From an uncultured Opitutales bacterium (lineage in GTDB: Bacteria; Verrucomicrobiota; Verrucomicrobiia; Opitutales; JABDGR01), in the NCBI GenBank assembly GCA_964561455.1, contig CAZLPS010000008.1, positions 23,307 to 87,306 of the forward strand: a stretch of 64,000 bases of DNA, in the 5' to 3' direction. This document shows, piece after piece, positions 1 through 18,143 of this stretch (the first letter of the stretch is position 1; each line of letters begins with the position of its first letter). The position numbers were made by a program, and so were the translations under genes. The notes under the pieces are model-generated. The model was not told the DNA's origin. It saw nothing but the letters and a program-made list of their open reading frames with translations, and searched no databases.

Positions 1-3000
1 TGGCAATGTTGTTAATCGGGCTGCCGCTCAACGCCGCGGAGAAGGTGGTGCTCGCGCCATTGCCGCCCTCCGTCAAAGTCACCGCCTGGCCGGCCGTGGT
101 CGCCAGTGCGAGCGCCGAGGTCAGATTCAGCGCACCCATGGTGACGGAGGTGATATTGGGCGCAAATTGCACAATACCGGCGGCGGGGATGTAATTGAGG
201 GTCGAGTTTTGCAGGGCCAGGGAGTTGGCCACGATCAGCGTGCCAGCCGTGATATTGGTGGTGCCGGCAAAGGTGTTTGCGCCGCTCAGAGTCAGTATGC
301 CGGCGCTCACCCCGTTCGCCGTGGTCACGTTGGTTGCGGTCACCAAACCGACGCCGGCGCCGACCGGGGTCGTTGCCGTAATCAGGCTCGTATTGCCATT
401 GATGGCCTGGGCAACTTGTGCCGCCGTGGAACTAATCGTGGCGTCCGTGCCACCCGTAAGCGCCGTGATGGGCCGGGCCGCGACCAGGCCGGAGCCATCG
501 TTGGCAGGTACGTTGGCCACGGTGAACAAGGCGCCAGCGGCCGTGCCGTTGGTGAAGCTGGCATTGCCGATATTGGACGAGATGCTCGCCGCCGTGGACG
601 TGATATTGCCGCCGCCGTCCGTGGCCAGATTGATGATCAGATTATTGCCCGTGACGTTGAAGCTGAGCGCGGAATTGGGCGAGCCGGGATTGACAAACGT
701 AACGTTGCTCAAATTGGCCCCCGGGGTGCCCGCGGCCAACTTCGTCGTGAAAATGAGGTTCGAGTTCGGCAGCGGGAAGGTGGTGGTGGTCGAAGCGTTC
801 GCAGGTACGGTGGTCGCATTCGTGGCCAAACTTACCGTGATAATGTTGCCCGACGGCGTAACCGTGAGCAGCGAATTGGTGGTCTCCGGATTAACCAGTT
901 TGACGATAATGCCATTGCCCGTGGCGTTGAGCGAGGAAGTCGAAGTATAAGTGATGTTCCCGTTGGTTGCGCCGACGGAAGCCGCCGTGGCCGTCACGCC
1001 GTTGGCCCCCTGAATGGCGAGATTGCCCGGGCCGCCGATGGGCGACGCCAGCGTCAATTGATTGGCATTCAGATTGAAGATGGTGGAATTGCCCAGCTGG
1101 ATCGCATTGGTGAGCAGCGCGGAAATGTCCACCGGGGCGTTCCATTGCAGGGTACCGCCATTGCTGACGATCTGGCCGGTGCCGAAGCTGTTGGCCTGGT
1201 TGAACGCCACGGTCGCGCCCGAGCTGGCTGTGCCAATCGTGGTACCGCCGGTATAGTTGTTGTTGGCGCCGCTCAACGTCACAGTGCCATTGATGACGTT
1301 CAAACTGCCCGGCTTGGTAACGTTGCCGATTTGCACATTACCCGAGAGGTTCAACCCGCCGCTGCTGGTAATGTTGCCGATGAAGCTCAAATTGCCGCCC
1401 AAATTCAGCGTGCCGGAGTTCACCTTGAAGAAATCGGACCCGGCGTTCGGGCCGGTAAGGTTGCCGGTGTAGGTTGTCGTGACCGTATTGTTGCCCAGCG
1501 TCAGCGCGACAGCGCCCGCGGTCGAGGTCATCGCGATGTCCTGGTTGCCGGAGAATTCGCCAATGGTGACATTGGAAAGACTGCCGAAGCTCACCGTGCC
1601 GTTGGCGGAAGTATTGCCGACGATCATGTTCAGCGTCGTATTGGCGAGGGCCGTATTGCTGGCCAGCACCAATTTCGCGCCCTGGGCCACGTAGGTGTTC
1701 CCACTCAGCGTGTTGGCGCCGGACAACGTCAGCGTGCGGGTGGCGGCATTATTTTGCAGTACAAACATGTTGCCGGACCCCGTGATGGTATTGGCCACCG
1801 TGACATCCGCCGCTTCGTTGAAGATCACATTGCCCGTGACGGCCAAGACCGACCCGGCGGCGATGCTGCCGAAACTGCCGTTGCCGATTTGCAAAGTGCC
1901 TTGGGACACCGTGGTGTTGCCTGTGTAGGTATTGGCGCCGGTGAGCGTCAGCGTGTTGGGCGCGGCGGCCAGACCGCCCGAGAGATTGGCCACCACCGTG
2001 GGTGTAACCAAACCCGTACCGTCATTGCCGGGCGCCAGTGCCGTCGTGACCAATCCCGTAACGGTGCTGTTAGCCTGCAAGAGCGCCAGCACTTGCGCCG
2101 CCGTGGTCGAAAGCACCCCCGCATTGGTCCCATTGGTCAGCGCGGTGGGCGCCAACACCGTCACCACTCCCGCACCATTGCTGGTCAGCGGCACTGAGGC
2201 CGTCAAGACGGCATTTGCCGTGGCGTTGCCGTTGATGGCCGCGGCCACCAGCGCGGCGGTGGCGGCGGCGGCGTTAATGCCAATATTCGCCCCATTCGCG
2301 AGCGGCGCCGAAATGGGACTGACGAATCCGGTGCCGTTGCTGACGCCAGTGTTCGAGGCCAGCAACACCGAATTCACCACCGAATTTCCGTTAAGCAGGG
2401 TGATGATTGAAAGCGCGGTGGCATTGCTGACACTATTGGTGCCGGACAAATTAACGATAATATTGCTGGTGGTCGAGCTGGCCGAAATATTGGAAACCGC
2501 CAGCGTACCCGAGGAAATATAGGTGACGTTGACCAAGTTCGACGCCGTGCCCGGCGACTTCGCCGTCAGGGTAATGTTGCCGTTGGACGCACCGACGGTG
2601 GCCAGCGACGCATTGGTCCCGGCCAGGGTCGGCAGCGAGACAATAATGTTCGTGGCCGTCGAAAGGCTCGAAATGGCGAGCGCGGAATTGATCACGCCGG
2701 GATTGATGTAGCTCACGGTCACGCCGTTCGGCACTGTGCCGGAATTCTTGGCCATGAAGACCAAGTCAGCATTGGTCACACCCAGATTCGTGGTCAGATT
2801 CGCGTTGTGGCCCGTGCTATCCGTGGGCAAATTGACTGTGATGTTATTGGCATTCACCGCCACCCCGAGCGGCGAGTTTTGGATGCCGGGGTTGACGTAG
2901 GTGATGTTAATCGTGTTGCCCACGACGCCCGCTGCCGTCGCCTTGAAGAGGAGGTTCGCGTTGGCGCCCAGCGTCGTGGTGTTCGCGGCCGACACTGCCG

Positions 3001-6000
3001 GCGTCACGCCGTTTTGATTGATGCCGCCGGTGCCCAGCACCACGTTGCCATATACCATGTCCGCCGGTTCCGCAAAAGCCAGGGTGGACACCGTGCTGAG
3101 GGTCGCGTTCGCATTGGGGACGCTGTTGACCACCACATTCCCGACCACCATGCCGAAGCTCGTGGCGTTGCCCAATTGCAGGGTGCCGTTGTTCACGGTG
3201 ACATTGGAGCTGCTGAGCGACGTGGTAAAGGGGCTGGTGCCCGCCGCCAGCGTCGCGCCGCCCGCGAGGGTGAAGGTGCCGGACCCAGTCATGACCAAAG
3301 CGGCGGGGCCGCTGGTGGAGGTGAGGAGTCCACTAAAGGTGCTGCTCACGTTGCCGTTGCCCACGGTCAGCGTCAGATTGGAAATATCGAGGTTCTTGTT
3401 GCCATTAATGCCACCGATCCCGGCGGAGGTGAGCGAACCAAAGCTGAGATTGCCAATGTTTCCACCGGTATTGTAACCGATGATGTTCGAGGTGAGCAGC
3501 GCCGTGGCATTGCCCAATACTAAATTACCCGGCGCCACCGTGGCCGCGGGCGACGTGCCGTTAAACAACACCGTCGTAATCGTGCCATTCACGCCATTCC
3601 CCGCCAAGGTCAGGCTGGAGCCCGTGGACACACCGCCGGCCAGGTTGGTGGCCGCGGTGGGCGTTACCACGCCCGACCCGTTACTCCCAGTCACATTGGC
3701 CGCCGTGATCAAGGCCGCGACGGCGGTGCCGTTGGTAAATGAAACGTTGCCGATATTGCTGGCGATGCTCAAGGCGGTCGAAGTGACCACGGCATCTGCG
3801 CCACCGGTCAGGAACGTTGCCGAAGCCGGCACGACGACCCCGGCGCCAGGGCCCGTGGGCGTAACCAGGGCGCTGGCCGCGGTGCTGGCAATAATATTCG
3901 CAGTGATGTTCGCCGCCGTCATGGTTGGCGCCACATTGCCAAAAGCGTCCGTGGCCAAATTCACCTTGATGGCCGTGCCGTTGACCTGCACCGAGATCGG
4001 GGTGTTGTTGCCGGCCTGGACATAGCTGATGCTGGTGTTATTGCCCGCCACGCCAAGGGTCTTGGCCGTGAACGTGACTTGCCCGATACCGGTGCCGAGG
4101 GAATTGGCGGCCGCCAAACCACCGCTCGCGGCGGTGGCGAGATTGACCGTGATCGCATTGCCGGTGACCGCAAAACTGAGCGGCGAGTTGTTGATCTGGG
4201 GATTTACGTAGGAAATGCTGATATTGTTGCCCAGCATGCCCGTCAGCGTGTTGTTGGTGGCATTGGCGGTAAACAACAAGGCGTTGTTGCTCGGCACTGA
4301 GCCGATCGCCTTGGTCGCCACGGACGTATTGGCGTAACCATTTTGGATGAGCGTGCCCGCCCCGTTGATGAGCTGGCTAAACGTGGTGGCCCCAAAATTG
4401 TTAAAGACAAAAGTTCCGTTCAATGCCACCGCGACCGCGCCTTGCAACAGGCCGTCATGGGCGGCCGTGCGCCCATCGCCCAACTGAATGGTGCCATTCG
4501 CGTTGACGGTGGTGGTACCCGTATAAGTATTCTGGGCGGTCAGCACCAGGGTCGAGTTCGGCCCGTTTTGGGTCAACTGGCCAGCGGTGCCGGAGATCAG
4601 CGCCGCTTCCGTAAACACGCCCGGCGCTTCGTTGAAGACAATGTTGCCGCCGTCCTGGATGCTAGTGCTCGCCAGCGAGCCATTGGCCGTTTGATTACCC
4701 AGCGTAATTCCGCCCGCCCCTATCAACGTCGTCCCAGTAAAGGTCTGAGCACCGACCAGCGTCAAACTGGCAGTGCCGGATTTGTTCAACTGGCTGCCGA
4801 CTCCCGAAAGTGTGCCGTTATAGGTTGTGGCGGCACTGTTATTGCCCACCGTGAGCACAATCGGCGCGCCGGAGGTGTCCACCATGGTGATATTGCCGTT
4901 GCCACTCAAACCACCCAAGGCCACCGACAGGGCCGCGCCGGTGCCAAACTGCAAAATGCCGGTCACACTGGCATTCGACGCGTAGGTCTGACCAACCAGC
5001 GCCGTGGTGCTATTGGCGATGATATTTCCTGCCGTCGGCAAAATGGATGTCGTGCCGGTGAAAGAATTGCTCCCGCCGACGATCACGTCACCGGACCCGG
5101 CTTCAATCAGATTGCCGTTGCCGGAAATGTTGTTGATCAGGTTGTATTTGTTCCCGGCTCCCAGCGCCGACGAAGTCACATTGATGGTGAGATTGGAGAA
5201 ATTGCCGGCGGTTCCAAAATTGCTGCTGTTACCAGAGAGGAAGATGTTCCCCGCGACACTGCCAATACCGGAAGCACCGTCTCCCATTTGCAGAGTGCGG
5301 GTGTTGAAGGAGGTGCTATTCGTGAAGGTGCCAACGGTCGTTTGACCGATATAAGTGCTGTTTCCGGTCAGGATGAGCTTAAAACCGCTGCTCGGCAGGA
5401 GATTGACGCCGGAAACGGAGGTGCCGTTGGTCGGCGTCGTGCCGGAAATGGATCCGGCCAGCGTGAAATTCGCCCCCGTGGCGATATTAAGAGTGTTGCT
5501 GTTTTCGTTGCCCAGCGTGATGCCCAATGCGCTGAGGTCATAAGTCGATGTAGAGGGCCAGGTGATTTGACCGCCATTCAAAAAGATTGGTCCGGTGCCG
5601 AAATTCGTTTGCGCGCTGCTGGTCGCCTGGAACGCGATGGTACCGCCGTTTTGAATTATTGTGCCACCAGTGTAGCTGCTCAGGGAACCGCCAATGGTCA
5701 GGGTGGCATTGCCAGCCTTGATCAGCGAACCGCTGCCCGTAAAGTTGCCCGTATAAGTCATGTTGTTGTTTTGCGCGCCGACCGTCAACGCCACCGGGCC
5801 GCCCAGATTATTGTTCAGGGAAATGTCGCGATTGCCGTTCAGCACTGCGATGAACGCCGCGCTGACGGGCAGGCTCACCGTGCTGTTGGCAAAACCGAAG
5901 GCAAGGATGCCTTGGGTCGTGGTGTCGTAGGTTAACGAGGTGCGGGCCAGCGCGTTCGGGTTGCCCACCACCAACGTACCAAACTGAATCGAGGTGCCGC

Positions 6001-9000
6001 CAGTGTAGGTGTTGTTGCCGGCCAGAATCAAATTCGTGCCGGGCGCGCCGAGGGCGGTGGAACCGGTGGCCGACACCACGCCCGCGCCATTCGATCCCGT
6101 CGCCAGCACCGGCGTAATCAGGGCTAAAATGGCCGTGCTGTTGGGGCCGGTGGTTAACGCATTCAAAACTTGGGTGGCGTTCGCATTTACCACGCCGGTG
6201 CCGCTGGTGCCCAGCGTCACCGTTATCGCATTGCCCGACACGGCGGCCGTCGTGCCGGTGTTGTTGCCGACGCCGTTCACATAGGCAATGGTAATGTTGG
6301 TGCCCGCGGTGCCGGCAAATGTGGTATTCGCCGTGTAACTCAAAGCCGAACCGGCCCTGGCATTACCCGTATTCAAAGTGTAAAGTGGCGCCGTCAGGTT
6401 CAACGGAGCCTGCGCCGTCAACGTGCCGGTGCCGTTCGAGCCAAGCGCCAGATTCGGCGTCACGAGGGCAAACGCATTGGGCGAAGCCAGGATGGCGGCC
6501 ACCACCGCCGCCGCGGTGTTATTGCCCGCCCCAGTACCGAGGTCCACCATGACCACATTGCCACTGACCGTCGCCGTGGCCGTCGTGTTGGTGCCCGAGG
6601 CCGTAAACTGCACGGCGACGTTCGCACCGGCCGCGCCAATATTACTCGGGGTGGCCGTGAACGTCAGGCCGGTCCCGTTGGCCGCCGAACCGGTGGTCAG
6701 TGAATAAATGCCGCTGGCATTCTGGCCGGCTTGTGTAACCGCACCGCCGCCGGACAGGATGGCTGAATAAAGAATGTCCAGTGGCTCGTTGAATTTCAAG
6801 GTGCCCGAATTGGTCAAGGGCGAATTGACCAGGAAGCCCGGCGTGGTGCCGTTGCCCAGTTGCAGCGTGCCGCCGGAATTATTCGTGGTTGGACCGGTGT
6901 AGGTATTGTTGCCCACCAGGGTCAGGCTGCCGCCGCCCGCGCGGATGACGCCGGCGACACCCGTCAATGGCGTGGACAATTGCACGTTGCTGCCGTTGGT
7001 ATCCAATGTGTCAATGTCGTTGGTGGGTCCGGCAATGAGGTTGGGATTCAGCACCAGGGAGATGTCCGTCGCCGTGCCGGTGGCCCATTGGATGCCGCCG
7101 CCCAGGAGATTCAGGCTGTACGTTCCGCCGCTCAGCGAAGTTGCGCCCAGCGCCGCCACCGTGCCGTTGCCAGCGCTGGTGGAGGTGTTGGCGGCCGTCA
7201 ACATGGCGTTCGCCGTGGCATTGCCGTTGATCAATTGGATGATCGAGGCCGCCGTCGCATTGCTCGTCCCGCCGGTATTGGACAAATTGACGGTGATGGT
7301 GTTGCCCACGATGGACAAATTCGAAACGGCCTGGCCGACATTCGCCGTCGAGTACGCGATGGTGATGTTGTTGGAGGGCGTACCCGGGACATCGGAGGTA
7401 AAGGTAATGCCATTGTTGCTCCCCACGGAACCCGTGCTCAGCGCCGCGTTAATCGCATTGCCAAAGCTCTTGATCGAGTTGAAATTAATCTTTCCGGCGT
7501 CAACGAAGGTGCCGCCCGTGAACGTATTGATGCCCGTGAGGGTCAACGTGCCGTTGCCGACTTTGATCAGCGAGCCATTGCCGCTGGTGTTGCCGGAAAT
7601 GATGCCACTGAAATTGCTATTCAAGTCGCCCTGGCCGATGGTCAAGGCCATTGCCCCGTTGCTGCCGTTGGCGAGGGCCAGATTGCCACTCCCGCTGATG
7701 CCACCCAAGGTTGCCGCCGACAAGGTGCCGAAACTCAGGACGCCGCCACCCGAGTTGACGCTGACAATGGCGTTTTGCAGCGCCAGCGGAACCCCGAGCA
7801 CCAGCGTGCCGCTATTCACGAATACGTTGCCGGAGAAAGTATTGTTGTTGGAAAGCGTCAGCGTCGTCGCCGTGGGATTGGCGCCATTGTTGAGGATAAA
7901 TGTGCCATTCGCGACGATGCCGGAGCCATTGCTGCCGCTGCCCAATGCCGCGTTGATAATGTTCGAAACATTCCCATTCAGGGCGTCGCGCACGTTGGTG
8001 GCATTGCTGGTGATGCCCGGGTCCACGCCGCCGAGCAAACTAAAGGTGTTCAGCGAGGAAACCGCCCCGGCGCCGGAGCTGCCGACCGCATTTGAAACCA
8101 CGACCAGATTGCCGGAGCTGGCGTTGGCGGCGATGGCCGCCGTCACATTGGCCGCCGTGGAAAGGGCCGTGTTAATGGTCGGCGTCGTGCCGCCGACCAG
8201 AGGCAGGGAACCGAGCACCGACACGACGCCGGAACCATTGCTCCCGCCCGCATTCGCGACGGTCACCAAATTGCCGGCCGCCGAGCCGTTCGCCACCGAA
8301 ATATTGCCAAACAAGCCGGCGATGCTCGTGGCCGTCGAAGTAATCGTGCCCCCGCCATTGGTCGCCAGAAACACCGTAATGGTGCTCGTGCCGCCCGCCA
8401 GGGGGACCGCGTTCGCCAGCGGCGCAACCACGCCACTGCCATTACTGGTGCTCGTATTGGCGGCGGATACCAAAGCCGCCGCCCCCGCATTCGCCGCGAT
8501 GGCGCTGATGACGTTGGCCGCCGTGGCACTAACTGCGCCGTTTACGTCGGTGCCGAGGGTGACAATCACCGTGTTGCCGCTCGCGAGGGCCGTGGTGGGC
8601 AAACTGTTGCCGTTGCCACTGACCAATTGGACCGAAACGTTGCTGCCGTAGATGCCGGCAATGCTGGCATTGGTGGAATTGGCACTGAACGTAATCCCGC
8701 TATTCGTGCCGACACTCCCCGTCGCCACACTCGCCGGGCTGGTGGCAATGGACAAGTTGGCCGTCGGATTACTCGCGCCGGGATTGGCGTACACGATAAC
8801 CACATTGCCATTATAGTTGGACGACTGCTTGGTCGAAGTATAGGTCAGGTCGGCCTGGCTCCCAAAGGTGGTGGAGGCGGTGGCATTGGCGCCGCTGTTG
8901 GCCACCGTCGCCAGATTCACGATGATGTTGTTGCCGTTCACAGTCGCGTTTACTGCCGCCTGATTGCTCAGCGGATTGGCATAAGTGATATTGATGGCAT

Positions 9001-12000
9001 TGCCGATGTTACCGAACTGGTTCGTCGTACCCGTCACGGCAGCGTTGTACGCCAAGTCGGCGTTATTGCCCAGGTTCGTCGTGACGGACGCCGCAGCGCC
9101 GTTGGCGTCCGTGGCCAGGCTCGTGGTAATGGCGGTAAGGCCATTCGTCAGGTTGCTGGCCGGCAATGCGCCGAGCACGCCGGTACCGGAGCCACTGGCT
9201 ACGACCAGCACTTGGGCGCTCGGGCTGGCATTGATGGCGGCAGAGATGTTCGCCGGCGTTTCCGTGGGGCTGACGACCCCGCCAGCGCTGGTGGCCAAAT
9301 TCACGATGATCAAATTGCCGCTGGTGGTGATGCTGCGGCTCACGGCACTGGTGGCATTGACGACATACTGCACCTGGATGCCATTGCCCAGGACGCCGTT
9401 CGTGACCGCATTGCTGGCGTTGGCCGTGTAGTTAACGGCGGTCGCGCCTGCGCCCGTCGTCAGATTGGCGGAGGAATTGGCGACCGTCACCGCCAGCGCC
9501 TGGCTGTTGGCCTCGGGGTTGACATAAGTAACCACAATGCCGTTGTTCCCCACCCCGCCGACATTGTTCGTCACATTGCCAAAAACGGCTGAGCGGATAT
9601 TCAAGCCCGTGTTGGTGATCGGCAAATTCGTGGCGTTTAGCGCCGCAACGCCCGGGTTCACGTTGATGTTGCCGTTGTCCGACAGCAGGCCGGAGAAGAT
9701 CGCGTTCGTGGGCTCATTGAAATAGAGGGTGCCGTTGGCCACAATATTGCCGGTCATGTTGCCGCCGCTGGAAGATACATTACCCAGGGAGAGCGTGCCG
9801 GTGTTGGTGGTCGTGCCGCCGGAGTAGGTGCTGGCCACATTGCCCGCCAAATAGAGGACGCCCGTGCCGCCATTGTTGAACAGCCGGGCCGAGCCGGTGA
9901 GGGGCGACTTCAGGGTGACGTCGTTGCCATTGGTGTTTAAGGTAACGCTGGTTCCCTGCAGGGCGCCGTTGGGATTCAGTATGCTCGACACGTCGGTGGT
10001 CGTGCCAGTCGCCCAGGTGAGGGTGGCATTGCTGATGGTCAGGTTGGGCGTGGCGCCGAAATTATTGTTGGCGTTAAACACGATGCTGCCGTTGGTGAGG
10101 AAGGTGGCGCCATTATAGGAATTCGGCGTTTGTAATGTCAGCGCGCCGGAACCAACCTTGGTCAGAGTTCCCTGCGTCGCGTTGCCCAAACCATGGATGT
10201 CGGTCAGCGTGCCATTAAACGTGGTGTTGACGTTGTTTTGGCCGACGGTGATGTTCACGGCGCCGGTGCCGGCGGCGTTGGAAAGATCAAGCGTGCCATT
10301 CCCCGCCAAACCGCCCAAAGTGGCATTCGAGAGCGTGCCAAAGCTCACCGAGCCGCCACCCTGCAGGATAGTCAGCGTGCTGTTTTGCAACGCCTGTGAA
10401 TTACCCAATTGCAACGTGCCGGCGGTGATGCCGGTCGGCCCGCGATAGGTATTATTTCCGGTCAGAGTCAGGACGCCACTGCCCGCCTTCGTAAAACCAG
10501 CCGGACCGGAAAACGCTTCGGACAGGGTGACATTGTTGCCGTTGGTGTCCAGCACGCTATAGTGCCCGCCGGTCGGCGTGATATTGGCGTAAGTTGTCAC
10601 ATTGGCGCTGCCGTTATTGCCCGGGGCCAGGCTGGCCGAGACCAAAGCGCTGGCGGTGGCATTGCCGTTGATCAACGCGGTAATGTTCGTGGCGGTGGCG
10701 TTTGCTCCTGCGTTGCTGCCATTACCCGCCGCAACAATTACGATATTAGTTCCGTTGATTTGCAAAACGGACGAGTTGGCAGCGTTGTCAAAGGTAACGC
10801 TTATGTTGACGAGATTGTTGCCGTTGGCGCCGGCCACGAGCGAGTTGGTCCCATTGGCGGTGAACACGATGGCGTTATTGAGTGCTCCGGGTGATGTAAC
10901 GCTGGCGTTGAAGCCATTGATGACGGGATTCAACTGGCTGGCCGGGTCAAGCGTGGTGCCCAAGCCCCATTGCAAACCGCCGCCCGCCAGGGAGATGCTG
11001 CTCGGGCCAAAGTTGTTCAATGAATTGAAATTAATCAGGCCGCCGGTGATTACCGTGCCGCCCGTATATTTGTTGGGCACATTGAAGGTCAGCGTGCCAT
11101 TGCCGGCCTTGACGAACGTGCCGTTGCCGCTGACCGGCGTGTTGAAGGCAACGTTGTTGTTATTGGTGTCAAACGTGTCGTTGCCCGAATTCGGCGTGAT
11201 GTTGCCGATAATTCCCCCAAACGGACCCTTCAGGAAGGCGGAGATATCGGTCGTCGTCCCCGTCGCCCATTGCAGGCCGCCATTAAAGAGCACCAAGTTG
11301 CCGCCGCCAAAATTGGACCCATTGGTGAAGTTGATCAGGCCGCCCTTGATCGTGGTGCCGCCGGTAAAGGTGTTGGTGCCGCTGAGCGAGAGAATGCCCG
11401 TACCCGTCTTCAACAAACTCCCGGAACCGAAAAGCACCCCGCTATACACCGGAGAGTTTTGGAAGCCACCGATGTTCAGTGTGACGGCATTGCCGCTAAT
11501 CGGGTTGGTCAAGGGGATGTTTTGGTTGCCGCTCAAGCCGCCAAGGGTGAAACTCGTGAGGCTCCCGTAGTTGAATAGTCCATTATTATAGACCAGCGTG
11601 GCGTTCGCAATGGCGTTGGCGCCGGTGATGGCCAGGGTCCCGCCGGCGATCACCACATTGCCATTGAAGGAGTTGGTGTTGCTGAGCGTCAACGTGGTGG
11701 CCACGGCAATTGAGCCACCGGTGAGGTTCGTAACAACCGCCGGGGCCAATAGTCCCGTTCCACTATTGCCCGGGGCCAGCGCGGCATTGATGATGGCCGA
11801 CGCCGAAACGCTGCCCGTGACACTGGTGTTGCTCAATCCCGCCAGTAAACTATTTGCCGTGGTGGTGACGTTCGGATTCGCGCCGCCGGTCAGATTCGTG
11901 GCGACCAGCGGGTTCACCTGGCCGTTGCCATTCCCGGCCACGGTCGTCGTAACCAAAGTCGCGGCGACCGCATCCACCGCCGTTTTAACCGCACTTGCGG

Positions 12001-15000
12001 TATTTGCCGCCGTAACGCTGCCGGTGTTGCCGCTGGCCAGGGAGGTGGCGGCGGTGGGCACAATGACGCCCGTGCCCGTGCCCGTGGCCGAGACCAACGC
12101 CGTCAAAGTGGTGTTGGCCGCGATCGCAGCGGCAAGAGTCGCGGCGGTCGTGCTAATGGTCGGTTCCGTGCCCCCGGTAAGACTTTGATTGAGGATGGAA
12201 GCGGTCGTATTCGTCGCCGTCACCAGTCCAACACCCGTGCTGGCACCGGTGTTGGTCGGTGTGATGAGCGCCGCCGCCGCCGGCACCGCCGTGAGGGCTG
12301 CAATGACTTGCGCGGCCGTCGTCGTGATGCCGCCGGTACCGTCCGTGGCCAAACTTACATTGATGACATTGCCCGAGACACTGACCGCCAGCGGCTTGTT
12401 GGCCGCACCCGGATTAATATAGCTCACCTTCGGGCCGCCACTCGCGCCATTTTGGGCGGTGCCCAACAGTTTGGACGTATAAGTGACATTACCGTTGGCG
12501 GAACCGGTCGTCGCCAGGGTGGAGTTGGTGCCGGTGGCGGCAGTCGTGGCCAAGTTGACGATAATACCCGTCGTGCCGTTTAAACTAAAGCTGAGTGCCG
12601 CGCCGGCAGTTTCCGGATTCACGTACGTGACGTTAATGGAATTGCCCACCGTTCCACCGAATCCCGTCGTATTGGCCGTGTAAAGAATGCCCGAGCCGGT
12701 GCCCGTCGTGCCACCCGCGCCAATGGTTTGGCTGGCCGTGGCATAACCCGTGGTGGCGAGGGTCACCGTGATGGCATTGCCGCTGATGGCCGCGACCGGC
12801 AAGCCGGTGGTGGTGGCATTCGCATTGACATAAGTGACGGTAATGCCATTGCCCGCAGCGCCGTATTTGGTGCCCGTATTCGCCGTGTAAGTAATGTCCG
12901 AATTGCCGCCGAAAGCGGTGGTGAGCGCAGCCCCGCTACCCGTGTTGTCCGTCGCCAGATTCACGGTGACACCATTCCCGGACACTCCGAAACTCAACGA
13001 TTGATTGTTGGCGGTGGCAATGTTGGTGAAACCCGTGGCAAAAGTAACATTCGCGCTGTTGCCCGCGGTGCCGACGCCCGATGCCGCCGTAAAGATAATG
13101 TCATTGTTCAGGCCCGGCATCGTCGTCGTGTACGACGCCGTTTGGCCGCCCGTCGCAGTCTGGGTCACAACGCCATTACCGGAAAGAATCCCACTAAAGG
13201 TAATATTGCTGGGCTCCGCAAAGACAACCGATGCAATGTCGGAAATATTATAGGCTATGGACGTGGCGGCCACCGAAGGCAAACCGCCCGCATTTGAGAA
13301 ATTGCCCAATTGCAAGGTGCCGGCATTGGCGTTCACAGTGGCGGAGGCCGTCCCGACGTTCAGATTAACGGTATTCGCAAACGTCAAGGTGCCCGTGCCG
13401 GACTTGGTCAGGGAAACATTGCTGTTGGTGCCGGTGCTGGCGTTCAATCCGATCGCAGCCAGCGTGATGTTGTTGCCATTGGTATTAAATGTGGCATTGC
13501 CAATGTTGTTGCCCGAGGCCGCCGCCAGGCGGGGGGTGAAGTCACCGTTGTCCCCCGAGGTGCTCAGGTAATTGGTCGCCCATTGCAGCCCGCCACCCGT
13601 GATGTTAAAGCTGTTCGCCGCAGTATTGGCGCCCATGGCCCCCAAATTGCCAAAATTAATTTGGCCGCCGGTGATACTGGTATTTCCCGTAAAGGTGTTG
13701 TTTTGCGTGAGCGTCAGCGTGCCGCCGCCGTTCTTGGTCAAATTGCCCGGGCCGGTCAAAACTCCCGTATAAGTATTGTTGCTGCCGCGACCGCCAATCG
13801 AGAGGGTGATGCCCGCGCCGGTGGTATTGGCCAGCGCCACGTTCTGGTTGCCGCTCAAACCACCGAACGACGCCGAGGTCAGGGTGCCAAAGCTCAACAG
13901 CCCGCCGCCAACATTATAAGTGAGGGTGCTGTTGCCCATCGCCGACGAATTGTTCATCGTGATGGTGCCGGTCGTGATGGACGATGCCCCCGTGAAGCTG
14001 CTGCCGCCCGATAAGGTCAAATTGGTGGTGGCATTGCTGCCGCCGCCCAAATTCGAGGTGAGCGCAGCCGTGATCGGCCCGGTGCCGTCCGTGGTCCCAG
14101 CGGCAAAAGTGGGCACTTGAATCAGCGCCTGCACCGTCGCATTGGTCAAGGTCGCCTTGACGCTCGCCGCCGTGGAGGTAATGGTCGAATTGGCGCCAGC
14201 GATGGTCGAGCCGAGGGTGATATTAGCTGTGGAGGGCGTGGGTGCCAGAATGCCCTGGCCGAGGGTGCCGTTTGACGGCAGTTGGGCCGTCAACAGGGTA
14301 TTAACCGTGATATTGTTCTGAATCAGGTTCGCCACCTGCAAAGCCGTGGCATTCACCACTCCGGTCCCGTTGGTGCCTAAAGTAACTGTAATGAGATTGC
14401 CGGTCAGGGCGAGGGTGGACGGGGCATTGTTCCCGGTACCGGCGATATACTTGATCGTAAGGTTGTTGGCGTTGGTGCCGGCCGACGTGGCGGTGTATTC
14501 AATGTCCGCGTTCGCGCCAAAAGTCGTGGTCGTGCTCGCCACCGCCCCACTGTTATTCGTCGCCAGGGTCACAACAATGTTGGTGCCGTTGACGGTGACG
14601 CCTTCCGCCGCGTTGTTCGACCCGGTGTAGGCAAAGGTGACGTTAATGGCATTGCCTGCCGCATTGAGAAAATTCGTGGTGTTGGCGTTGAGGACGAGGT
14701 TATTATTTGTACCGCTAAATGCCGTGGTCAGCGAGGCGTTGGCGTTGAAGCCCGAGTCCACTTTGTTGAATGTGCCGTTGCCACCGATGCCCGAGGTGAA
14801 GTTGAAGTTGCCCGCTTCCTGGAAAACGAGTGCGCCGTTGTCCGTGACGCCGCCAGCCACCGACCCATTGGAAGTGCCATTGCCGAAGAAAATCGTGCCG
14901 CCGGGGTTGACCTGCGTGGTGCCGGTGTACGTTTGAATCGTCGGCATGGTCAGGATGTTGTTGCTTACCTGCGTTACGCCACCCGAGCCGGTAATATTGT

Positions 15001-16084
15001 TCATGAGGGTGTAGCTGATCGGCTGGTTCAATTCGAGCGTGCCGTTGACGCTGATGTTCCCGGCGATGGTGCCCAGGAGCGATCCAGCATTGGTCACCGA
15101 GCCGTTTGCGCCCAAGCGCACCGTGCCGCCCGTGATAAACAATACCGGGGTGGTCGAGTTCGCCCCGCCGCCAAAATTATTCGTCCCGGTCAGCACCAAA
15201 CGTTGCGGCCCCTTCCAGGTCAGGTTGCCGGGGCCGGAAACGTTGGTAAAGGTCAGATTGCCCGAGCCACCATAGCTGTTATTGCCGCCGGAACCGCTCC
15301 CGGAGGTGGTGATGGAAGCATTGTTCGCCAGCACCACGCCACCGTTAAACACCATGCTGTTTGACACCGGATTGCTTTCAAAAGTGAAGGCGCCGCTGGT
15401 GTTGTTACCCGCAGTGCCAATTTGCAGCCCATTGGTTACAACCTCCGAATTGCCGCTGCTGTTATTGAGTTGTCCGCCGTTGATGACAAAGGTCCCCGAT
15501 CCCCCCGCGGCCGCATTGTTGTAATTGAGCGTGCCGCTATTGAGTATAAGACCGCCATGGAACGAGTTCGTGCCAGTCAGGGTGACCGTTCCCACGCCTG
15601 CGGTGGTATTGCCCAGCGTCAGGGAGAAGTTGTTGGCCCCATCGCTGATGTTACCCGAGACCGTAAGCAAGCCCGTCGGCCCCTCGGTCCATTGTTGGCT
15701 TGCCCCCAGGACGATCGGCGCCGATATGGTCAGGTTCACCGTCGCGTTGCTCATGTCAATGCCACCGCCGTTGACGGCCAGGGCATTACCGATGGTCAGA
15801 TTTGCCGTCGGGTTGGACGTGAGATTCGCCGTGATGAAAATCGAGCCTTGCGGATTCAAGATCTGAATTGCGCCTGCCGTAATGCCACTGCCCACCGACA
15901 CCGACTGGTTGAACGACTCCACGGTCCCGTTCCAAATCAGCAAATTGCCGGACGTGGGCGCAAAGCCCTGCAACCAACTCGCGCTTTGGTCCAGCGTCGT
16001 GTTGTTGTCCGCCTTGGTCAGGCCGGTCAGCGATTGGCCCCGCGCCCCCAAGGGCACAAACAGGGCGGCAAGCAAGATGCCCAA
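1..16084 (-). CDS. giant secreted autotransporter-associated beta-strand repeat (PATR-type) protein; 5' part only, runs off the left window edge
   Basis: The minus-strand frame with codon first bases at positions = 1 mod 3 has no stop from 16141 to the window edge. The ORF track lists no long complete minus ORF here because this ORF is incomplete. Hand translation 16093->15400 gives ...RNGLRFGITFLGILLAALFVPLGARGQSLTGLTKADNNTT... (signal-peptide-like). It continues ...NFSLTLGNTTAGVGTVTLTGTNSFHGGLILNSGTLNYNN..., matching the G-x-L/V-T-L-S/T-G-x-N-S/T-F/Y-x-G-G pattern of PATR repeats. Positions 58->2 give GASTTFSAALSGSPINNIA in the same frame. There are 5361 codons from the first in-frame TTG (16084) to the edge, and no in-frame ATG at the 5' end. 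Confidence 0.85.
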   Translation of the reverse strand, partial: MGILLAALFVPLGARGQSLTGLTKADNNTTLDQSASWLQGFAPTSGNLLIWNGTVESFNQSVSVGSGITAGAIQILNPQGSIFITANLTSNPTANLTIGNALAVNGGGIDMSNATVNLTISAPIVLGASQQWTEGPTGLLTVSGNISDGANNFSLTLGNTTAGVGTVTLTGTNSFHGGLILNSGTLNYNNAAAGGSGTFVINGGQLNNSSGNSEVVTNGLQIGTAGNNTSGAFTFESNPVSNSMVFNGGVVLANNASITTSGSGSGGNNSYGGSGNLTFTNVSGPGNLTWKGPQRLVLTGTNNFGGGANSTTPVLFITGGTVRLGANGSVTNAGSLLGTIAGNISVNGTLELNQPISYTLMNNITGSGGVTQVSNNILTMPTIQTYTGTTQVNPGGTIFFGNGTSNGSVAGGVTDNGALVFQEAGNFNFTSGIGGNGTFNKVDSGFNANASLTTAFSGTNNNLVLNANTTNFLNAAGNAINVTFAYTGSNNAAEGVTVNGTNIVVTLATNNSGAVASTTTTFGANADIEYTATSAGTNANNLTIKYIAGTGNNAPSTLALTGNLITVTLGTNGTGVVNATALQVANLIQNNITVNTLLTAQLPSNGTLGQGILAPTPSTANITLGSTIAGANSTITSTAASVKATLTNATVQALIQVPTFAAGTTDGTGPITAALTSNLGGGSNATTNLTLSGGSSFTGASSITTGTITMNNSSAMGNSTLTYNVGGGLLSFGTLTSASFGGLSGNQNVALANTTGAGITLSIGGRGSNNTYTGVLTGPGNLTKNGGGTLTLTQNNTFTGNTSITGGQINFGNLGAMGANTAANSFNITGGGLQWATNYLSTSGDNGDFTPRLAAASGNNIGNATFNTNGNNITLAAIGLNASTGTNSNVSLTKSGTGTLTFANTVNLNVGTASATVNANAGTLQLGNFSNAGGLPSVAATSIAYNISDIASVVFAEPSNITFSGILSGNGVVTQTATGGQTASYTTTMPGLNNDIIFTAASGVGTAGNSANVTFATGFTNIATANNQSLSFGVSGNGVTVNLATDNTGSGAALTTAFGGNSDITYTANTGTKYGAAGNGITVTYVNANATTTGLPVAAISGNAITVTLATTGYATASQTIGAGGTTGTGSGILYTANTTGFGGTVGNSINVTYVNPETAGAALSFSLNGTTGIIVNLATTAATGTNSTLATTGSANGNVTYTSKLLGTAQNGASGGPKVSYINPGAANKPLAVSVSGNVINVSLATDGTGGITTTAAQVIAALTAVPAAAALITPTNTGASTGVGLVTATNTTASILNQSLTGGTEPTISTTAATLAAAIAANTTLTALVSATGTGTGVIVPTAATSLASGNTGSVTAANTASAVKTAVDAVAATLVTTTVAGNGNGQVNPLVATNLTGGANPNVTTTANSLLAGLSNTSVTGSVSASAIINAALAPGNSGTGLLAPAVVTNLTGGSIAVATTLTLSNTNSFNGNVVIAGGTLAITGANAIANATLVYNNGLFNYGSLTSFTLGGLSGNQNIPLTNPISGNAVTLNIGGFQNSPVYSGVLFGSGSLLKTGTGILSLSGTNTFTGGTTIKGGLINFTNGSNFGGGNLVLFNGGLQWATGTTTDISAFLKGPFGGIIGNITPNSGNDTFDTNNNNVAFNTPVSGNGTFVKAGNGTLTFNVPNKYTGGTVITGGLINFNSLNNFGPSSISLAGGGLQWGLGTTLDPASQLNPVINGFNASVTSPGALNNAIVFTANGTNSLVAGANGNNLVNISVTFDNAANSSVLQINGTNIVIVAAGNGSNAGANATATNITALINGNATASALVSASLAPGNNGSANVTTYANITPTGGHYSVLDTNGNNVTLSEAFSGPAGFTKAGSGVLTLTGNNTYRGPTGITAGTLQLGNSQALQNSTLTILQGGGSVSFGTLSNATLGGLAGNGTLDLSNAAGTGAVNITVGQNNVNTTFNGTLTDIHGLGNATQGTLTKVGSGALTLQTPNSYNGATFLTNGSIVFNANNNFGATPNLTISNATLTWATGTTTDVSSILNPNGALQGTSVTLNTNGNDVTLKSPLTGSARLFNNGGTGVLYLAGNVASTYSGGTTTNTGTLSLGNVSSSGGNMTGNIVANGTLYFNEPTNAIFSGLLSDNGNINVNPGVAALNATNLPITNTGLNIRSAVFGNVTNNVGGVGNNGIVVTYVNPEANSQALAVTVANSSANLTTGAGATAVNYTANASNAVTNGVLGNGIQVQYVVNATSAVSRSITTSGNLIIVNLATSAGGVVSPTETPANISAAINASPSAQVLVVASGSGTGVLGALPASNLTNGLTAITTSLATDANGAAASVTTNLGNNADLAYNAAVTGTTNQFGNIGNAINITYANPLSNQAAVNATVNGNNIIVNLATVANSGANATASTTFGSQADLTYTSTKQSSNYNGNVVIVYANPGASNPTANLSIATSPASVATGSVGTNSGITFSANSTNASIAGIYGSNVSVQLVSGNGNSLPTTALASGNTVIVTLGTDVNGAVSATAANVISAIAANAGAAALVSAANTSTSNGSGVVAPLANAVPLAGGTSTITVFLATNGGGTITSTATSIAGLFGNISVANGSAAGNLVTVANAGGSNGSGVVSVLGSLPLVGGTTPTINTALSTAANVTAAIAANASSGNLVVVSNAVGSSGAGAVSSLNTFSLLGGVDPGITSNATNVRDALNGNVSNIINAALGSGSNGSGIVANGTFILNNGANPTATTLTLSNNNTFSGNVFVNSGTLVLGVPLALQNAIVSVNSGGGVLSFGTLSAATLGGISGSGNLALANGSNGAMALTIGQGDLNSNFSGIISGNTSGNGSLIKVGNGTLTLTGINTFTGGTFVDAGKINFNSIKSFGNAINAALSTGSVGSNNGITFTSDVPGTPSNNITIAYSTANVGQAVSNLSIVGNTITVNLSNTGGTSNATAASIIQLINGNATANAMLTAANTSTSAGNGTVAALGATSLSGGTYSLNLLGGGIQWATGTATDISLVLNPNLIAGPTNDIDTLDTNGSNVQLSTPLTGVAGVIRAGGGSLTLVGNNTYTGPTTNNSGGTLQLGNGTTPGFLVNSPLTNSGTLKFNEPLDILYSAILSGGGAVTQAGQNASGIYSLTTGSAANGTGLTFTATPSNIGAAGANVAVQFTASGTNTTATATVSGNVVMVDLGTGAGNNTAAAVVAAILASPNAFALVTPNLALGSNGTGTLTAQAPLNLTAPLYTLNTGNARAGSALSYTANTTFAGTAGTNITIAYVNGVGNNTGTTAAVSGNAITVTLGTSGTGVVNANATQVLNALTTGPNSTAILALITPVLATGSNGAGVVSATGSTALGAPGTNLILAGNNTYTGGTSIQFGTLVVGNPNALARTSLTYDTTTQGILAFGFANSTVSLPVSAAFIAVLNGNRDISLNNNLGGPVALTVGAQNNNMTYTGNFTGSGSLIKAGNATLTIGGSLSSYTGGTIIQNGGTIAFQATSSAQTNFGTGPIFLNGGQITWPSTSTYDLSALGITLGNENSNTLNIATGANFTLAGSISGTTPTNGTSVSGVNLLPSSGFKLILTGNSTYIGQTTVGTFTNSTSFNTRTLQMGDGASGIGSVAGNIFLSGNSSNFGTAGNFSNLTINVTSSALGAGNKYNLINNISGNGNLIEAGSGDVIVGGSNSFTGTTSILPTAGNIIANSTTALVGQTYASNASVTGILQFGTGAALSVALGGLSGNGNITMVDTSGAPIVLTVGNNSAATTYNGTLSGVGSQLNKSGTASLTLVGAQTFTGTTLIGAGGITLGNQTANGSLASTSIQDGGNIVFNEAPGVFTEAALISGTAGQLTQNGPNSTLVLTAQNTYTGTTTVNANGTIQLGDGRTAAHDGLLQGAVAVALNGTFVFNNFGATTFSQLINGAGTLIQNGYANTSVATKAIGSVPSNNALLFTANATNNTLTGMLGNNISISYVNPQINNSPLSFAVTGNAITVNLATAASGGLAAANSLGTGIGQVTFTAKTLGVAGNNTSISYVQAGNNTPISVQVNGTAIKVNLATDAFGNVAPTMTAANITANIIASTAASALVTPTGPGAGVVVPASATFLTGGADAVVTSTALSIASNIGNVSFTNGTAVAALITAANVTGSNGSGVVTPTAATNLAGGVSTGSSLTLAGNGVNGTITTVLFNGTSPAATVAPGNLVLGNATALLTSNIIGYNTGGNIGNLSFGSLTSAGIGGINGNKNLDISNLTLTVGNGNVSSTFSGLLTSTSGPAALVMTGSGTFTLAGGATLAAGTSPFTTSLSSSNVTVNNGTLQLGNATSFGMVVGNVVVNSVPNANATLSTVSTLAFAEPADMVYGNVVLGTGGINQNGVTPAVSAANTTTLGANANLLFKATAAGVVGNTINITYVNPGIQNSPLGVAVNANNITVNLPTDSTGHNANLTTNLGVTNADLVFMAKNSGTVPNGVTVSYINPGVINSALAISSLSTATNIIVSLPTLAGTNASLATVGASNGNITLTAKSPGTASNLVNVTYISSGTLAVSNISASSTTSNIIVNLSGTNSVSNATALSIITLLNGNSVVNSVLLASNTGVSNGTGFVSPISAPLANGANIGINAAAATAALVAAAINGNATANAVLTASVPLTSNGAGVVTVLAPTALTNGTNAGVLSTTAAQVLALLQANSTVTGLVTTALAPGNDGTGLVTPTVVANLSGGLAAAPNTLTLTGANTYTGNTTVSQGTLQIGNGSFGSIAAGSVLAVTGNVIFNEAADVTVANTITGSGNMFVLQNNAATRTLTLSGANTLSGNTYVAQGAKLVLASNTALANTTLNMIVGNTSANGTVSFGSLSNVTIGEFSGNQDIAMTSTAGAVALTLGNNTVTTTYTGNLTGPNAGSDFFKVNSGTLNLGGNLSFIGNITSSGGLNLSGNVQIGNVTKPGSLNVINGTVTLSGANNNYTGGTTIGTASSGATVAFNQANSFGTGQIVSNGGTLQWNAPVDISALLTNAIQLGNSTIFNLNANQLTLASPIGGPGNLAIQGANGVTATAASVGATNGNITYTSTSSLNATGNGIIVKLVNPETTNSLLTVTPSGNIITVSLATNATTVPANASTTTTFPLPNSNLIFTTKLAAGTPGANLSNVTFVNPGSPNSALSFNVTGNNLIINLATDGGGNITSTAASISSNIGNASFTNGTAAGALFTVANVPANDGSGLVAARPITALTGGTDATISSTAAQVAQAINGNTSLITATTPVGAGVGLVTATNVTTANGVSAGILTLSGANTFAGTTNITAGTLIVANSLALQNSTLNYIPAAGIVQFAPNITSVTMGALNLTSALALATTAGQAVTLTEGGNGASTTFSAALSGSPINNIA

Positions 16085-16964
16085 AAAGGTGATCCCGAAC
16101 CGGAGACCATTCCGGTTGTAACGATGGAGGGAGTATTCGATCATAGCGCGGAGCAGGGTACTGGGTTGGAAGAAAGCGCCGGAACGTCTCGGGTGGTGGA
16201 TCAGTGACTGGATCCGCAACCAAAAACAGGGCGCATTTTTTTATTTTTTAAAGGGGTGCGGAGGAATAAGAAGCGGCCGCGAGTGGCGGCAAAAGTGGCG
16301 GTGATACTGCCGCAAGTCGCCGACGCCGAAACCGTGGCCACCGCTGCCCCAAATCCCCCATCCTCCGAGGGAGCGGGCCGCAAGGCTAACGGTACTTTGG
16401 CGAGTGTTCATTGAGGCGATTAATAAAAGTTATCAGCCGTAAGGTAGGGGTAAAATAGACGTGGCGAAAACAAACGGACGCGGCATTCCCGTAATCTAAC
16501 CGGGGAACACTCGCGTTGAGGGGGGTTGGGGGTGGGGAGCTCGCAGCTTCCTCCATTATTGTAAAAAAAATGTATGACGCAACCAATTTTTTGCTTTTTT
16601 TTCAGAGTTTTTTCGGAGGAGAAGAAGCCTGCCGGAACCCCGGGGTGAAAATCTCCCGGACGGCGTTTGCATAACGTCCATTACCTTAGGTTTCGAGACG
16701 GATGTTCACAATCCGTTGACGCACCAAGTCCTTGGCAGGGAGCAAAGAGGGCGAGTTATTCACAATTCTTCCCCAAGATTCACCCTCGGTTCGGCCCGGG
16801 TCCATCCTGGGTTGGATTCCTCACGAAACCCCCGCCGCCCAACCAGGCCTCCGGAAAGGCTGTGCACATCTGACCACCTGCCGATCCCATCCGTCGGAGC
16901 CCCTTCCTGCCGGTGACTTAATGATTTTTGTTATTATTCAATGTTATCATAAATATACCGGCTA

Positions 16965-18143
16965 TTATTCAAGGCCGGGGCGGATTCCGCCCACCGCCCG
17001 CGCGCCCGCCTGGTCCAACCCGGGCAGTCCGGGTTGGACGGGTCCGGGTCGGCGAAATTCCCCCGCATTCAGCTCCATCGTTTTGGGCGCCAAACCGGCT
17101 TTCCGGCAGGCCAGGGCGAACAGGCTGGCAAAGGTCTCCGTCCAAATGCCCTCGCCGGTCATCCGGGTGCCAAAGCGGGGGTCGTTTAACCGGCCTTCGC
17201 CACCCCGCAAGTCCCCGAGGCGTTGCTCGATGCGTGCTTTCTTTCCCGGAAACTCGCGGTCGAGCCAGGCGGTAAACAATTCCTTCACCGCGAAGGGCAA
17301 ACGGAGCAATTGCGGATGGGCGAACACCGCCCCAGCCTTTGCGGCCGCCTCCACAATGCTGACCATCTCCGTATCGTTGAGCCCCGGAATGATCGGCGCC
17401 ACATTCACCCCCACCGGCACTCCCGCTTCAGCCAGGCGCGACACCGCCTCCAACCGTGCCCGGGGCGAAACCGTCCGCGGCTCCATGCGGCGCGCGAGGT
17501 CGGGATCGAGCGTGGTGATGGATACGAGCACGGCCACGCCGCGCCAGCGGGCCATTTCTCCGAGCAAACCCAAATCCCGCGTCACGAGCGCATTTTTCGT
17601 GACAATCGTCACCGGGTTGCGGAACCGCGCCAGCACTTCCAGGCATCCGCGCGTAATGCCAAACCGCCGCTCGGCGGGCTGGTAGCAATCCGTCACCCCG
17701 CTCATATTGACCCAGGTGGGGTCCCACCGCGGATGCTGTAACACCGCCTCCAGCAATTCCGGGGCGCGGTGTTTGACCATGATCTTCGTCTCAAAATCGA
17801 GGCCCGCACTGAAGCCGAGGTATTCATGGGTGGGCCGCGCATAACAATAGATGCATCCGTGCTCGCAGCCGCGATAGGGATTGATGCTTTTGCGAAAAGG
17901 AATGTCCGGGCTTTCATTATGACTAATGATGGATTGCGCGTTATCGGGGATGAAAACGGTGTCGGCGCGGCGCGGCGCCATCAAGTCCGCACCACTCAAT
18001 TGCTCCCAGTCCGGTACCGCCACCGTTTGCTCAAACCGGTTGCGGGGGTTCTCCTGCACGCCGCGACCCCGGGCCAGCGCGGCCGGTGGCAACGCGCTGG
18101 GCCCGTCGCCGGGGTTGGTCGAATTGGGCTGCATGGTGAACAT
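16965..18143 (-). CDS. radical SAM protein, PA0069 / SplB-like (COG1533) family
   Basis: ORF 16965..18227(-). CEHGCIYC is the CxxxCxxC radical-SAM cluster motif. The N-terminal RGRGVQENPRNRFE and the overall layout recall the PA0069 family (from memory). Start trimmed to ATG 18143 (MFTMQPNS); ATG 18134 is equally possible. Confidence 0.8.
   Translation of the reverse strand: MFTMQPNSTNPGDGPSALPPAALARGRGVQENPRNRFEQTVAVPDWEQLSGADLMAPRRADTVFIPDNAQSIISHNESPDIPFRKSINPYRGCEHGCIYCYARPTHEYLGFSAGLDFETKIMVKHRAPELLEAVLQHPRWDPTWVNMSGVTDCYQPAERRFGITRGCLEVLARFRNPVTIVTKNALVTRDLGLLGEMARWRGVAVLVSITTLDPDLARRMEPRTVSPRARLEAVSRLAEAGVPVGVNVAPIIPGLNDTEMVSIVEAAAKAGAVFAHPQLLRLPFAVKELFTAWLDREFPGKKARIEQRLGDLRGGEGRLNDPRFGTRMTGEGIWTETFASLFALACRKAGLAPKTMELNAGEFRRPGPVQPGLPGLDQAGARAVGGIRPGLE

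Follow-up and report, generated by a model that had tools for sequence, protein, structure and literature searches.

The DNA analyzed here (hereafter the window) comprises 64,000 nucleotides (nt) of contig CAZLPS010000008.1 from an uncultured Opitutales bacterium of soil (assembly GCA_964561455.1), and its left end is occupied by the 5′ part of a giant gene on the minus strand, for which an earlier note had proposed the role of a giant secreted or surface fiber or adhesin. The stop-free frame extends from position 16240 down to position 2 (5,413 codons), which bears out the claim of more than 16 kb of uninterrupted minus-strand open reading frame (ORF), open at the window edge. The first ATG is located at 16144, from where the product reads MIEYSLHRYNRNGLRFGITFLGILLAALFVPLGARGQS and 5,381 codons follow within the window, with the frame still open at position 2. 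The limits given in the earlier note (1-16141, 5,361 codons) were therefore slightly off, while its frame (codons beginning at positions = 1 mod 3) was right. On a near-identical contig, the gene was called independently from the same ATG (position 7883 of the contig that we call L011 equals window position 16144), and Met1 of the window protein aligned with Met1 of an ortholog. The coordinates of the gene, its parts and its upstream flank are collected in Table 1.

An open frame of this length arising by chance is excluded: at 60% G+C approximately 3% of random codons are stops, and by simple arithmetic 5,400 open codons would have a probability near e^-170. The G+C content of the three codon positions in the giant frame is 0.48/0.55/0.78, in agreement with the third-position G+C of the neighboring genes (0.70-0.83). 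Long plus-strand ORFs overlapping the gene have the mirror pattern: most of them peak in G+C at position 1 and four at position 3, and the low-first/high-third profile of the giant frame is found in none. Because their codon-position G+C mirrors that of the giant frame, these plus-strand ORFs were considered shadows.

Table 1. Giant gene, upstream flank and subdivisions of the encoded protein (aa, amino acids; HMM, hidden Markov model)
Feature	Residues (aa)	Window position (nt)	Strand	Basis or remark
Giant gene, 5′ part, codons 1-5,381	1-5,381	2..16144	-	open frame, ATG; runs off the window at position 1
Signal-peptide-like N-terminus	1-37	16034..16144	-	three Arg, then FGITFLGILLAALFVPLGA, then RGQ
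Upstream intergenic region, 820 nt		16145..16964	-	presumed promoter and 5′ leader
Radical SAM gene	392 (whole protein)	16965..18143	-	Pfam PF04055
Module cluster 1	474-693	14066..14725	-	iterated HMM
Module cluster 2	1007-1468	11741..13126	-	iterated HMM; holds the best copy
Best module copy	1211-1310	12215-12514	-	within cluster 2
Module cluster 3	1750-1850	10595..10897	-	iterated HMM
Module cluster 4	2172-2745	7910..9631	-	iterated HMM
Module cluster 5	2904-2998	7151..7435	-	iterated HMM
Module cluster 6	3151-3359	6068..6694	-	iterated HMM
Module cluster 7	3950-4162	3659..4297	-	iterated HMM
Module cluster 8	4389-4715	2000..2980	-	iterated HMM
Module cluster 9	5056-5270	335..979	-	iterated HMM
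Rod intervals	38-473, 694-1006, 1469-1749, 1851-2171, 2746-2903, 2999-3150, 3360-3949, 4163-4388, 4716-5055, 5271-5381			arithmetic from the cluster coordinates
Example rod plus module	1478-1900	10445..11713	-	PATR units every ~97 aa; first 265 aa modeled

The full length of the gene was read from the near-identical contig, ENA ERZ27245396:k141_358095 (64,286 nt), on which one gene of 13,079 aa is called, approximately 2.4 times the share present in the window, so that the true protein is larger than the window part, as previously claimed. This length was taken from the gene table of the contig, whose DNA was compared only across the overlap with the window, where positions 8262-29566 are 99.97% identical (6 mismatches and 0 gaps over 21,305 nt). 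The computed stop lies near contig position 58,758, and since approximately 5.5 kb of contig follow it (arithmetic), the end of the contig does not truncate the call. Proteins of the window are also present on a 92,582-nt NCBI contig, the length of which equals 5.5 + 39.2 + 47.9 kb if the window forms one of its ends (arithmetic), a sum consistent with a complete giant gene on that contig as well. On the 99.97%-identical contig, the gene as called thus exceeds, in one unbroken ORF, the 10,000 codons that define bacterial giant genes, while the window itself holds 5,381 codons and stops 7,698 codons before the stop codon of the gene. By extrapolation, the product has a mass of ~1.27 MDa. The exact 50-mer at the window edge had no match in genome or metagenome contig collections, nor did a pattern scan of metagenome contigs with the last 300 aa of the window protein return any.

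Collinear or positionally equivalent giant genes were found in four other Verrucomicrobial lineages, with lengths of 13,723, ~13,300 and at least 9,911 aa, the fourth being collinear and in pieces. Homology searches with the 800-aa ends of the window protein gave only proteins shorter than 1,400 aa; the N-terminal 800 aa matched best, at 46% identity, a protein of 782 aa encoded on a contig (420.9 kb) of 'uncultured Verrucomicrobiae bacterium MFD04780.bin.1.113' (CAVXVB010000007.1, 180439-220405; L001/L002/L003/L005), hereafter the relative. Its PATR coding region measures ~40 kb or ~13,300 codons in six frame pieces (782+3250+1932+... aa), and the protein sequence runs on sensibly across every frame break. 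With tblastn, the window protein was collinear with the relative at 46-52% identity, and its residue 5,380 mapped ~41% of the way in. A second ortholog, on the 294.6-kb contig ERZ26871208 contig_129378_np1212 (L021), is collinear at 54-66% identity and likewise split by frameshifts (1714+2909+1595+... aa). In keeping with the earlier remark that such genes are often split in annotations, the orthologs in these two long-read metagenome-assembled genomes (MAGs) are cut into 3-6 pieces; names of the form 'contig_..._np1212' we take to denote a nanopore-style assembly. At both loci a radical SAM gene lies upstream on the same strand (82% identity to that of the window in the relative and 87% in contig_129378) and marks the orthologous locus, the gap upstream of the giant gene is ~870 nt, and the YbjQ and esterase neighbors are shared with the window. 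A functional link between the radical SAM protein and the giant gene was considered and dropped, synteny being its sole basis.

The 13,723-aa gene (ERZ27245402:k141_1619137, L019) is convergent with the atp operon and was found with a chimeric query joining AtpB of the relative to the C-terminal 200 aa of its giant protein, a query that did not retrieve the contig of the window. Partial copies exist on JGI Ga0265320_10000349 (L017) and ENA k141_452170 (L018); the latter calls the gene at just 4,420 aa with approximately 5.5 kb of contig left upstream (arithmetic). Another giant PATR gene convergent with the atp operon (JGI Ga0495309_0003500) encodes at least 9,911 aa. The atp-linked and the radical-SAM-linked giants are probably the same locus, because on contig_129378 the atp operon is also convergent, ~10 kb past the point where the giant gene should end. 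The 13,723-aa gene was found in the same metagenome samples as the population of the window and may be the copy of a sister species or a paralog in the same organism. Its atp-linked neighborhood was rejected as the 3′ flank of the window gene itself, as the exact neighbors are absent from the 64,286- and 92,582-nt contigs.

At the N-terminus of the window protein, the mean Kyte-Doolittle hydropathy over 19 aa rises above 1.9 within residues 13-34 and nowhere else in the 5,381 aa. Judged by sequence, this single strongly hydrophobic segment behind three Arg agrees with the signal-peptide-like N-terminus noted earlier and is a putative Sec-type signal sequence; the motif GI.F.G.L.A.L.VPLGAR.Q is kept in two orthologs. 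The product is acidic and of biased composition (T 15.1%, S 9.6% and N 13.0%, together 38%; K+R 1.2%; charged residues 2.8%), with 261 N-x-S/T sequons in the window part and one Cys in the 5,413-codon frame, none of it after the start Met. High Thr/Ser/Asn, very low Cys and few basic residues agree with the bias described for PEP-CTERM proteins (PMC1569441).

The beta-strand repeats of the PATR type proposed in the earlier note were recovered above curated cut-offs in both halves of the window protein, with 70.8 and 85.1 bits for PF12951 (cut-off 27; 14 stretches) and 82.8 and 104.7 bits for TIGR02601 (cut-off 19.85). Our own PATR HMM placed 23 units, often spaced ~97 aa apart and all outside the module clusters described below. 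In the AlphaFold2 model of one such rod (alignment A4), residues 1-260 have a predicted local distance difference test (pLDDT) of 80-98, except for two 10-residue blocks within residues 161-180 (51 and 65), and the chain is predicted to form a stack of short strands of 3-9 residues each throughout. A sequence search of the PDB gave no significant match.

Between the PATR rods lie nine clusters of a ~96-aa 'B module', for which an iterated HMM built from the window protein gave 32 hits across window positions 335-14725. The clusters make up 45% of the residues of the window part and hold roughly 22 whole modules, with the consensus T.LTG.NNDL.FTA...G..GN.I.V.YVDP.....L.V.V.G..I.V.LATDG.G.ITSTAAQV.AAI.A...A.ALVT..N..GNDGTGVV. 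Pfam and NCBIfam have no model for it, and proteins made mostly of this module match no family in them. A whole-library phmmer search with a query from the stretch of cluster 2 retrieved 705 representative proteins at E<=1e-3, including proteins in which FlgL/flagellin ends flank a central module, structural proteins of phage virions (phrog_8757) and an M14 peptidase; one FlgL-type protein carrying the module also has a weak tail-sheath match (phrog_279). AlphaFold2 predicted a single module (35 sequences) as five strands and two helices with a pLDDT of 86.9, and a Foldseek search of BFVD with this model matched proteins of uncultured Caudovirales (TM 0.72, E 7e-4).

The module is homologous to one in the outer variable domains of flagellin/FlgL and in phage virion proteins (phrog_8757; phrog_279). 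Those proteins bear 1-8 copies on each subunit of a self-assembling filament or virion, whereas the window protein strings its nine clusters (at least 32 hits) between beta-helix rods on a single polypeptide. In a more speculative reading that we consider improbable, the module would be a general exposed-surface binding or camouflage domain (e.g., a glycan binder or a decoy of phage receptors). Being widespread and common to giant fibers, flagellar proteins and phage particles, it merits a family definition and a structure of its own. In the relative, modules occur throughout the N-terminal ~8,300 aa and are absent from the last ~4,800 aa, and the atp-linked gene (L017/L019) has none in its last 3,148 aa; since they end at approximately aa 8,300 in the relative, the anchor-proximal third would be a plain rod and the distal two thirds decorated.

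All three readable C-termini of the orthologs are of the PEP-CTERM type, i.e., a PEP motif, one transmembrane helix and a basic cluster. The relative ends in VPEPSTWGLLAGGAMLLVGWRRKR, within ...FVVVPEPSTWGLLAGGAMLLVGWRRKR..., and passes both PF07589 (23.3 bits, cut-off 20.7) and TIGR02595 (22.5 bits, cut-off 16). The atp-linked gene (L014/L017/L019) ends in IPEPSTYGLVAGGAMLLLGLRRKR, within ...VLIPEPSTYGLVAGGAMLLLGLRRKR..., with 22.6 bits for TIGR02595, and shares 60% identity with the relative across 745 aa. The third end (L025) was read by eye as IPEPSTYALLAGGAMLILGLRRKR, within ...VVIPEPSTYALLAGGAMLILGLRRKR... Other Verrucomicrobial MAGs encode PATR proteins with PEP-CTERM-like tails, whose lengths range from 2,000 to above 4,500 aa. 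The PEP-CTERM signal was first noticed in Verrucomicrobia, with 65 copies in V. spinosum (PMC1569441).

Taken together, we give a probability of about 0.6 to the reading that one intact ~39.2-kb gene, of which the window carries the first ~41%, encodes a giant PEP-CTERM-sorted protein, Sec-exported and displayed as a long beta-helical surface fiber. The secreted or surface fiber of the earlier note is accordingly the most likely role, judging by the PATR repeats, the signal-like N-terminus and the PEP-CTERM ends of the orthologs, and its label 'adhesin' is an inference. Following the export-and-cleavage model for exosortases and PEP-CTERM proteins (PMC1569441, PMC12188702), the chain would be exported by Sec via its N-terminal signal and kept tethered in the inner membrane by a C-terminal helix, until an exosortase cuts at the PEP motif and the cleaved protein is passed to the cell surface or exopolysaccharide layer. 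The C-terminal third would act as a cell-proximal stalk, a plain rod ending in the PEP motif, one transmembrane helix and RRKR. In the N-terminal two thirds the rods would be interrupted by clusters of the 96-aa strand-and-helix module, and this decorated part would reach ~0.2 micrometre out (a rough figure at ~22 aa and 0.48 nm per rung), possibly for attachment or aggregation. PEP-CTERM proteins and exosortases have been tied experimentally to cell surface-exopolysaccharide adhesion, flocs and biofilms (PMC12188702, PMC9850573), in analogy to which the exosortase processing, surface location and adhesive role of the window protein are proposed. More speculatively, and in our view improbable as a whole, it could far exceed every exosortase substrate known so far in size, belonging to a conserved family of ~13,000-13,700 codons whose outer two thirds display ~25-30 modules, a copy number extrapolated from the relative.

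Several observations weigh against the sorted surface fiber. The PEP-CTERM signal of the window copy is presumed from relatives sharing 46-66% identity in the comparable part. No exosortase or exopolysaccharide-export gene was found among the window ORFs scanned (30 with Pfam, and eight of these that had no Pfam match also with NCBIfam). Foldseek searches of the PDB gave nothing significant for the module model (best E 1.9) or for the rod model (best E 0.59), the non-significant list for the rod being mostly beta-helix proteins (an ice-binding protein at the top, autotransporter passengers, HxuA, pectate lyase and tailspike). How PEP-CTERM proteins cross the outer membrane is unexplained even for small substrates (PMC12188702), and the present one would measure 1.3 MDa. 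The frame breaks of the two long-read MAGs, finally, may be consensus errors or real decay; in the relative, one of the five lies at a long homopolymer (G8) and four elsewhere.

These breaks are an argument for regarding the gene as a decaying or silent relic, open by chance or of recent origin and without a full-length product, to which the short call of 4,420 aa for the second giant gene, despite the upstream contig, can be added. We consider a relic very unlikely, given that the frame is open for 16 kb in the window, 39 kb on the near-identical contig and 41 kb in a second lineage, and that its codon-position G+C is of the kind seen in expressed genes. Moreover, orthologs at 46-66% identity are collinear, of about the same length, and keep both the signal-like N-terminus and the PEP-CTERM end, which needs purifying selection, and the frameshifts are confined to nanopore-style assemblies, where consensus errors are the simpler explanation. 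The earlier note had also cautioned that the 16-kb ORF could be mis-assembled, as a collapsed, expanded or chimeric repeat. That the region is hard to assemble is shown by two assemblies from the same population that break ~1 kb inside the gene (L012 1-1053 and L013 3-1040, equivalent to window ~15100-16144; 351 and 346 aa), at what is possibly a strain-variable site that holds no exact repeat. The longest exact repeat in positions 1-16240 is just 20 nt, so that an assembler with k-mers above 21 could not have collapsed or expanded the sequence. Tandem Repeats Finder returned zero rows for the window gene, the direct DNA repeat families are all just 60-81% identical, and internal protein repeats do not exceed ~48% identity over stretches of at least 80 aa. 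The independent contig has no gaps against the window, contigs of three other assemblies (found by exact look-up of a neighboring window protein) are 99.91-99.97% identical to it, and the order is collinear with two diverged orthologs. With these results the worry is answered, and we regard an assembly artifact as scarcely credible.

The route of export can be questioned as well, as PATR/TIGR02601 repeats were originally defined in autotransporter passengers. Many of the weaker database matches pair PF12951 with the barrel PF03797, and an autotransporter peptidase model was matched weakly and in part, far below its cut-off. A type V autotransporter would, however, be expected to carry such a barrel, which Pfam did not find in the window part or the C-terminal pieces of the relative, and NCBIfam identified PEP-CTERM and no barrel family on two of the three ortholog ends. 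Two-partner secretion of the TpsA/filamentous hemagglutinin type lacks its TPS domain (PF05860; no match at E<=0.01 in the N-terminal 2,715 aa), and a type I secreted adhesin of the LapA/SiiE/MpIBP type is contradicted by the Sec-like N-terminus, the PEP-CTERM ends of the orthologs and RTX repeats (PF00353) being without a match in the window protein or the pieces of the relative. The other Verrucomicrobial PATR proteins that were fetched also end in PEP-CTERM-like tails. Because the orthologs end in PEP-CTERM, exosortase-type sorting is favored over autotransport, and all three of these routes together appear highly improbable. A different job for the same protein with the same export is considered unlikely: matrix release, a glycosylated coat or shield, a phage decoy, an ice, mineral or polymer binder, or a role in cell contact. 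The presence of the module in exposed FlgL/flagellin-type and phage virion or sheath proteins points to a generic display or decoration role and not to a defined ligand, and the numerous sequons, the near absence of charge and the ice-binding beta-helix at the top of the (non-significant) fold matches fit one or another of these jobs. Exosortase substrates may also be released and not anchored (PMC12188702), and giant proteins elsewhere were linked to predation (bioRxiv 10.1101/2023.11.21.568195). On the other side, no enzymatic, toxin or lytic domain turned up in the window part (5,381 aa) or across the final 7,500 aa of the relative, the fold matches are not significant, and the observations as a whole fit these roles and adhesion alike.

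Though extreme, the protein encoded by the giant gene can be recognized as belonging to a known class. In size it exceeds the experimentally studied PEP-CTERM proteins by tens of times. Like PEP-CTERM substrates (Haft et al. 2006, PMC1569441; PepA, PMC9850573; Nostoc CrtB, PMC12188702), it has a signal-like N-terminus, no second strongly hydrophobic segment in the window part, a Thr/Ser/Asn-rich, Cys- and basic-poor composition, and orthologs that pass TIGR02595 and PF07589. Unlike most of them, which are without recognizable domains, it consists of PATR rods and an unmodeled module, and in contrast to systems with an exosortase/exopolysaccharide locus, none was present among the scanned window ORFs. 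With the PATR passengers of autotransporters (Ssp, IcsA and fusolisin in the fold list) it shares the repeat family and, in the model, a rod of short strands, but it is ~10 times longer, its rods are broken by modules, and its orthologs have another sorting signal in place of a C-terminal barrel. In size class, presumed surface role and common fragmentation it resembles the giants of more than 10,000 aa surveyed by West-Roberts et al. (bioRxiv 10.1101/2023.11.21.568195). A 36,805-aa protein of Chlorobium and the giants of Omnitrophota are of this kind. Proteins of such size are rare but documented: in that survey, the 10,000 longest BV-BRC proteins start at 10,624 aa, and the legend of its protein-length figure names Verrucomicrobia as one of the PVC phyla whose genomes are marked for 5-10,000 aa and above. 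While the Omnitrophota giants combine numerous domains, enzymatic ones among them, and have been associated with predation, the window protein is made of near-pure structural repeats, and its gene, unlike theirs, belongs to a syntenic ortholog family of five lineages, in which the three ends that were read are PEP-CTERM.

Less expected are the intact 39-41 kb across diverged lineages, a megadalton putative exosortase substrate, and a module shared with flagellar and phage surfaces. The gene is a clean, repeat-unambiguous case of more than 39 kb, intact in short-read assemblies, and the presence of giant genes in the same neighborhood in five lineages argues that they are kept by selection and are not assembly noise. 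If the proposed sorting is true, the PEP-CTERM/exosortase system would extend to a megadalton substrate, which sharpens the question of how such proteins exit the cell, and the export of a 1.3-MDa beta-helix through a diderm envelope would need an outer-membrane route not yet described. As a practical warning, annotations of long-read MAGs shred the same gene into pieces.

In the flank of the gene, a promoter scan of 16145..16964 found no sigma-70-like site, and no Rfam family was detected anywhere in the window. An exact look-up of the radical SAM protein of the window gave no match, and that of a window porin only a 13-kb contig. The second, smaller PATR protein mentioned in the earlier note does exist (37023..40238, minus strand, 1,071 aa) and lies in an islet at 36000-40000 with a G+C of 0.52-0.55 vs. 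~0.60 elsewhere. Its third-position G+C is 0.60, compared with 0.70-0.83 in most neighbors, and it has a signal-like N-terminus of its own and no PEP-CTERM or barrel; the exact sequence was absent from a collection of 15 billion proteins, for which a different called start is a possible reason. Five minus-strand ORFs (294-630 aa; 29808-31700, 31716-32600, 54094-55317, 55922-56953 and 57667-58761) were without a Pfam or NCBIfam match and have third-position G+C values of 0.57-0.72.

Between the radical SAM and YbjQ genes, positions 18262-27512 of the plus strand encode five proteins with DUF6242 and/or CHB_HEX_C and Fn3_assoc domains, together with a BD-FAE esterase and a GDSL lipase. This block is missing at the same place in MFD04780, and of its genes contig_129378 has just those for the esterase and the lipase. 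In all assemblies that reach that far, YbjQ is followed by a gene for a HicB-like antitoxin (window ~28936-29187). A ParE toxin gene is present at 4706-5017 of L012 and unlisted in the gene table of k141_358095 (at the equivalent of window ~21800-22100), and a 103-aa minus-strand ORF at window 21797-22108 matches the L012 gene in size and position; there is strain-level variation at this site.

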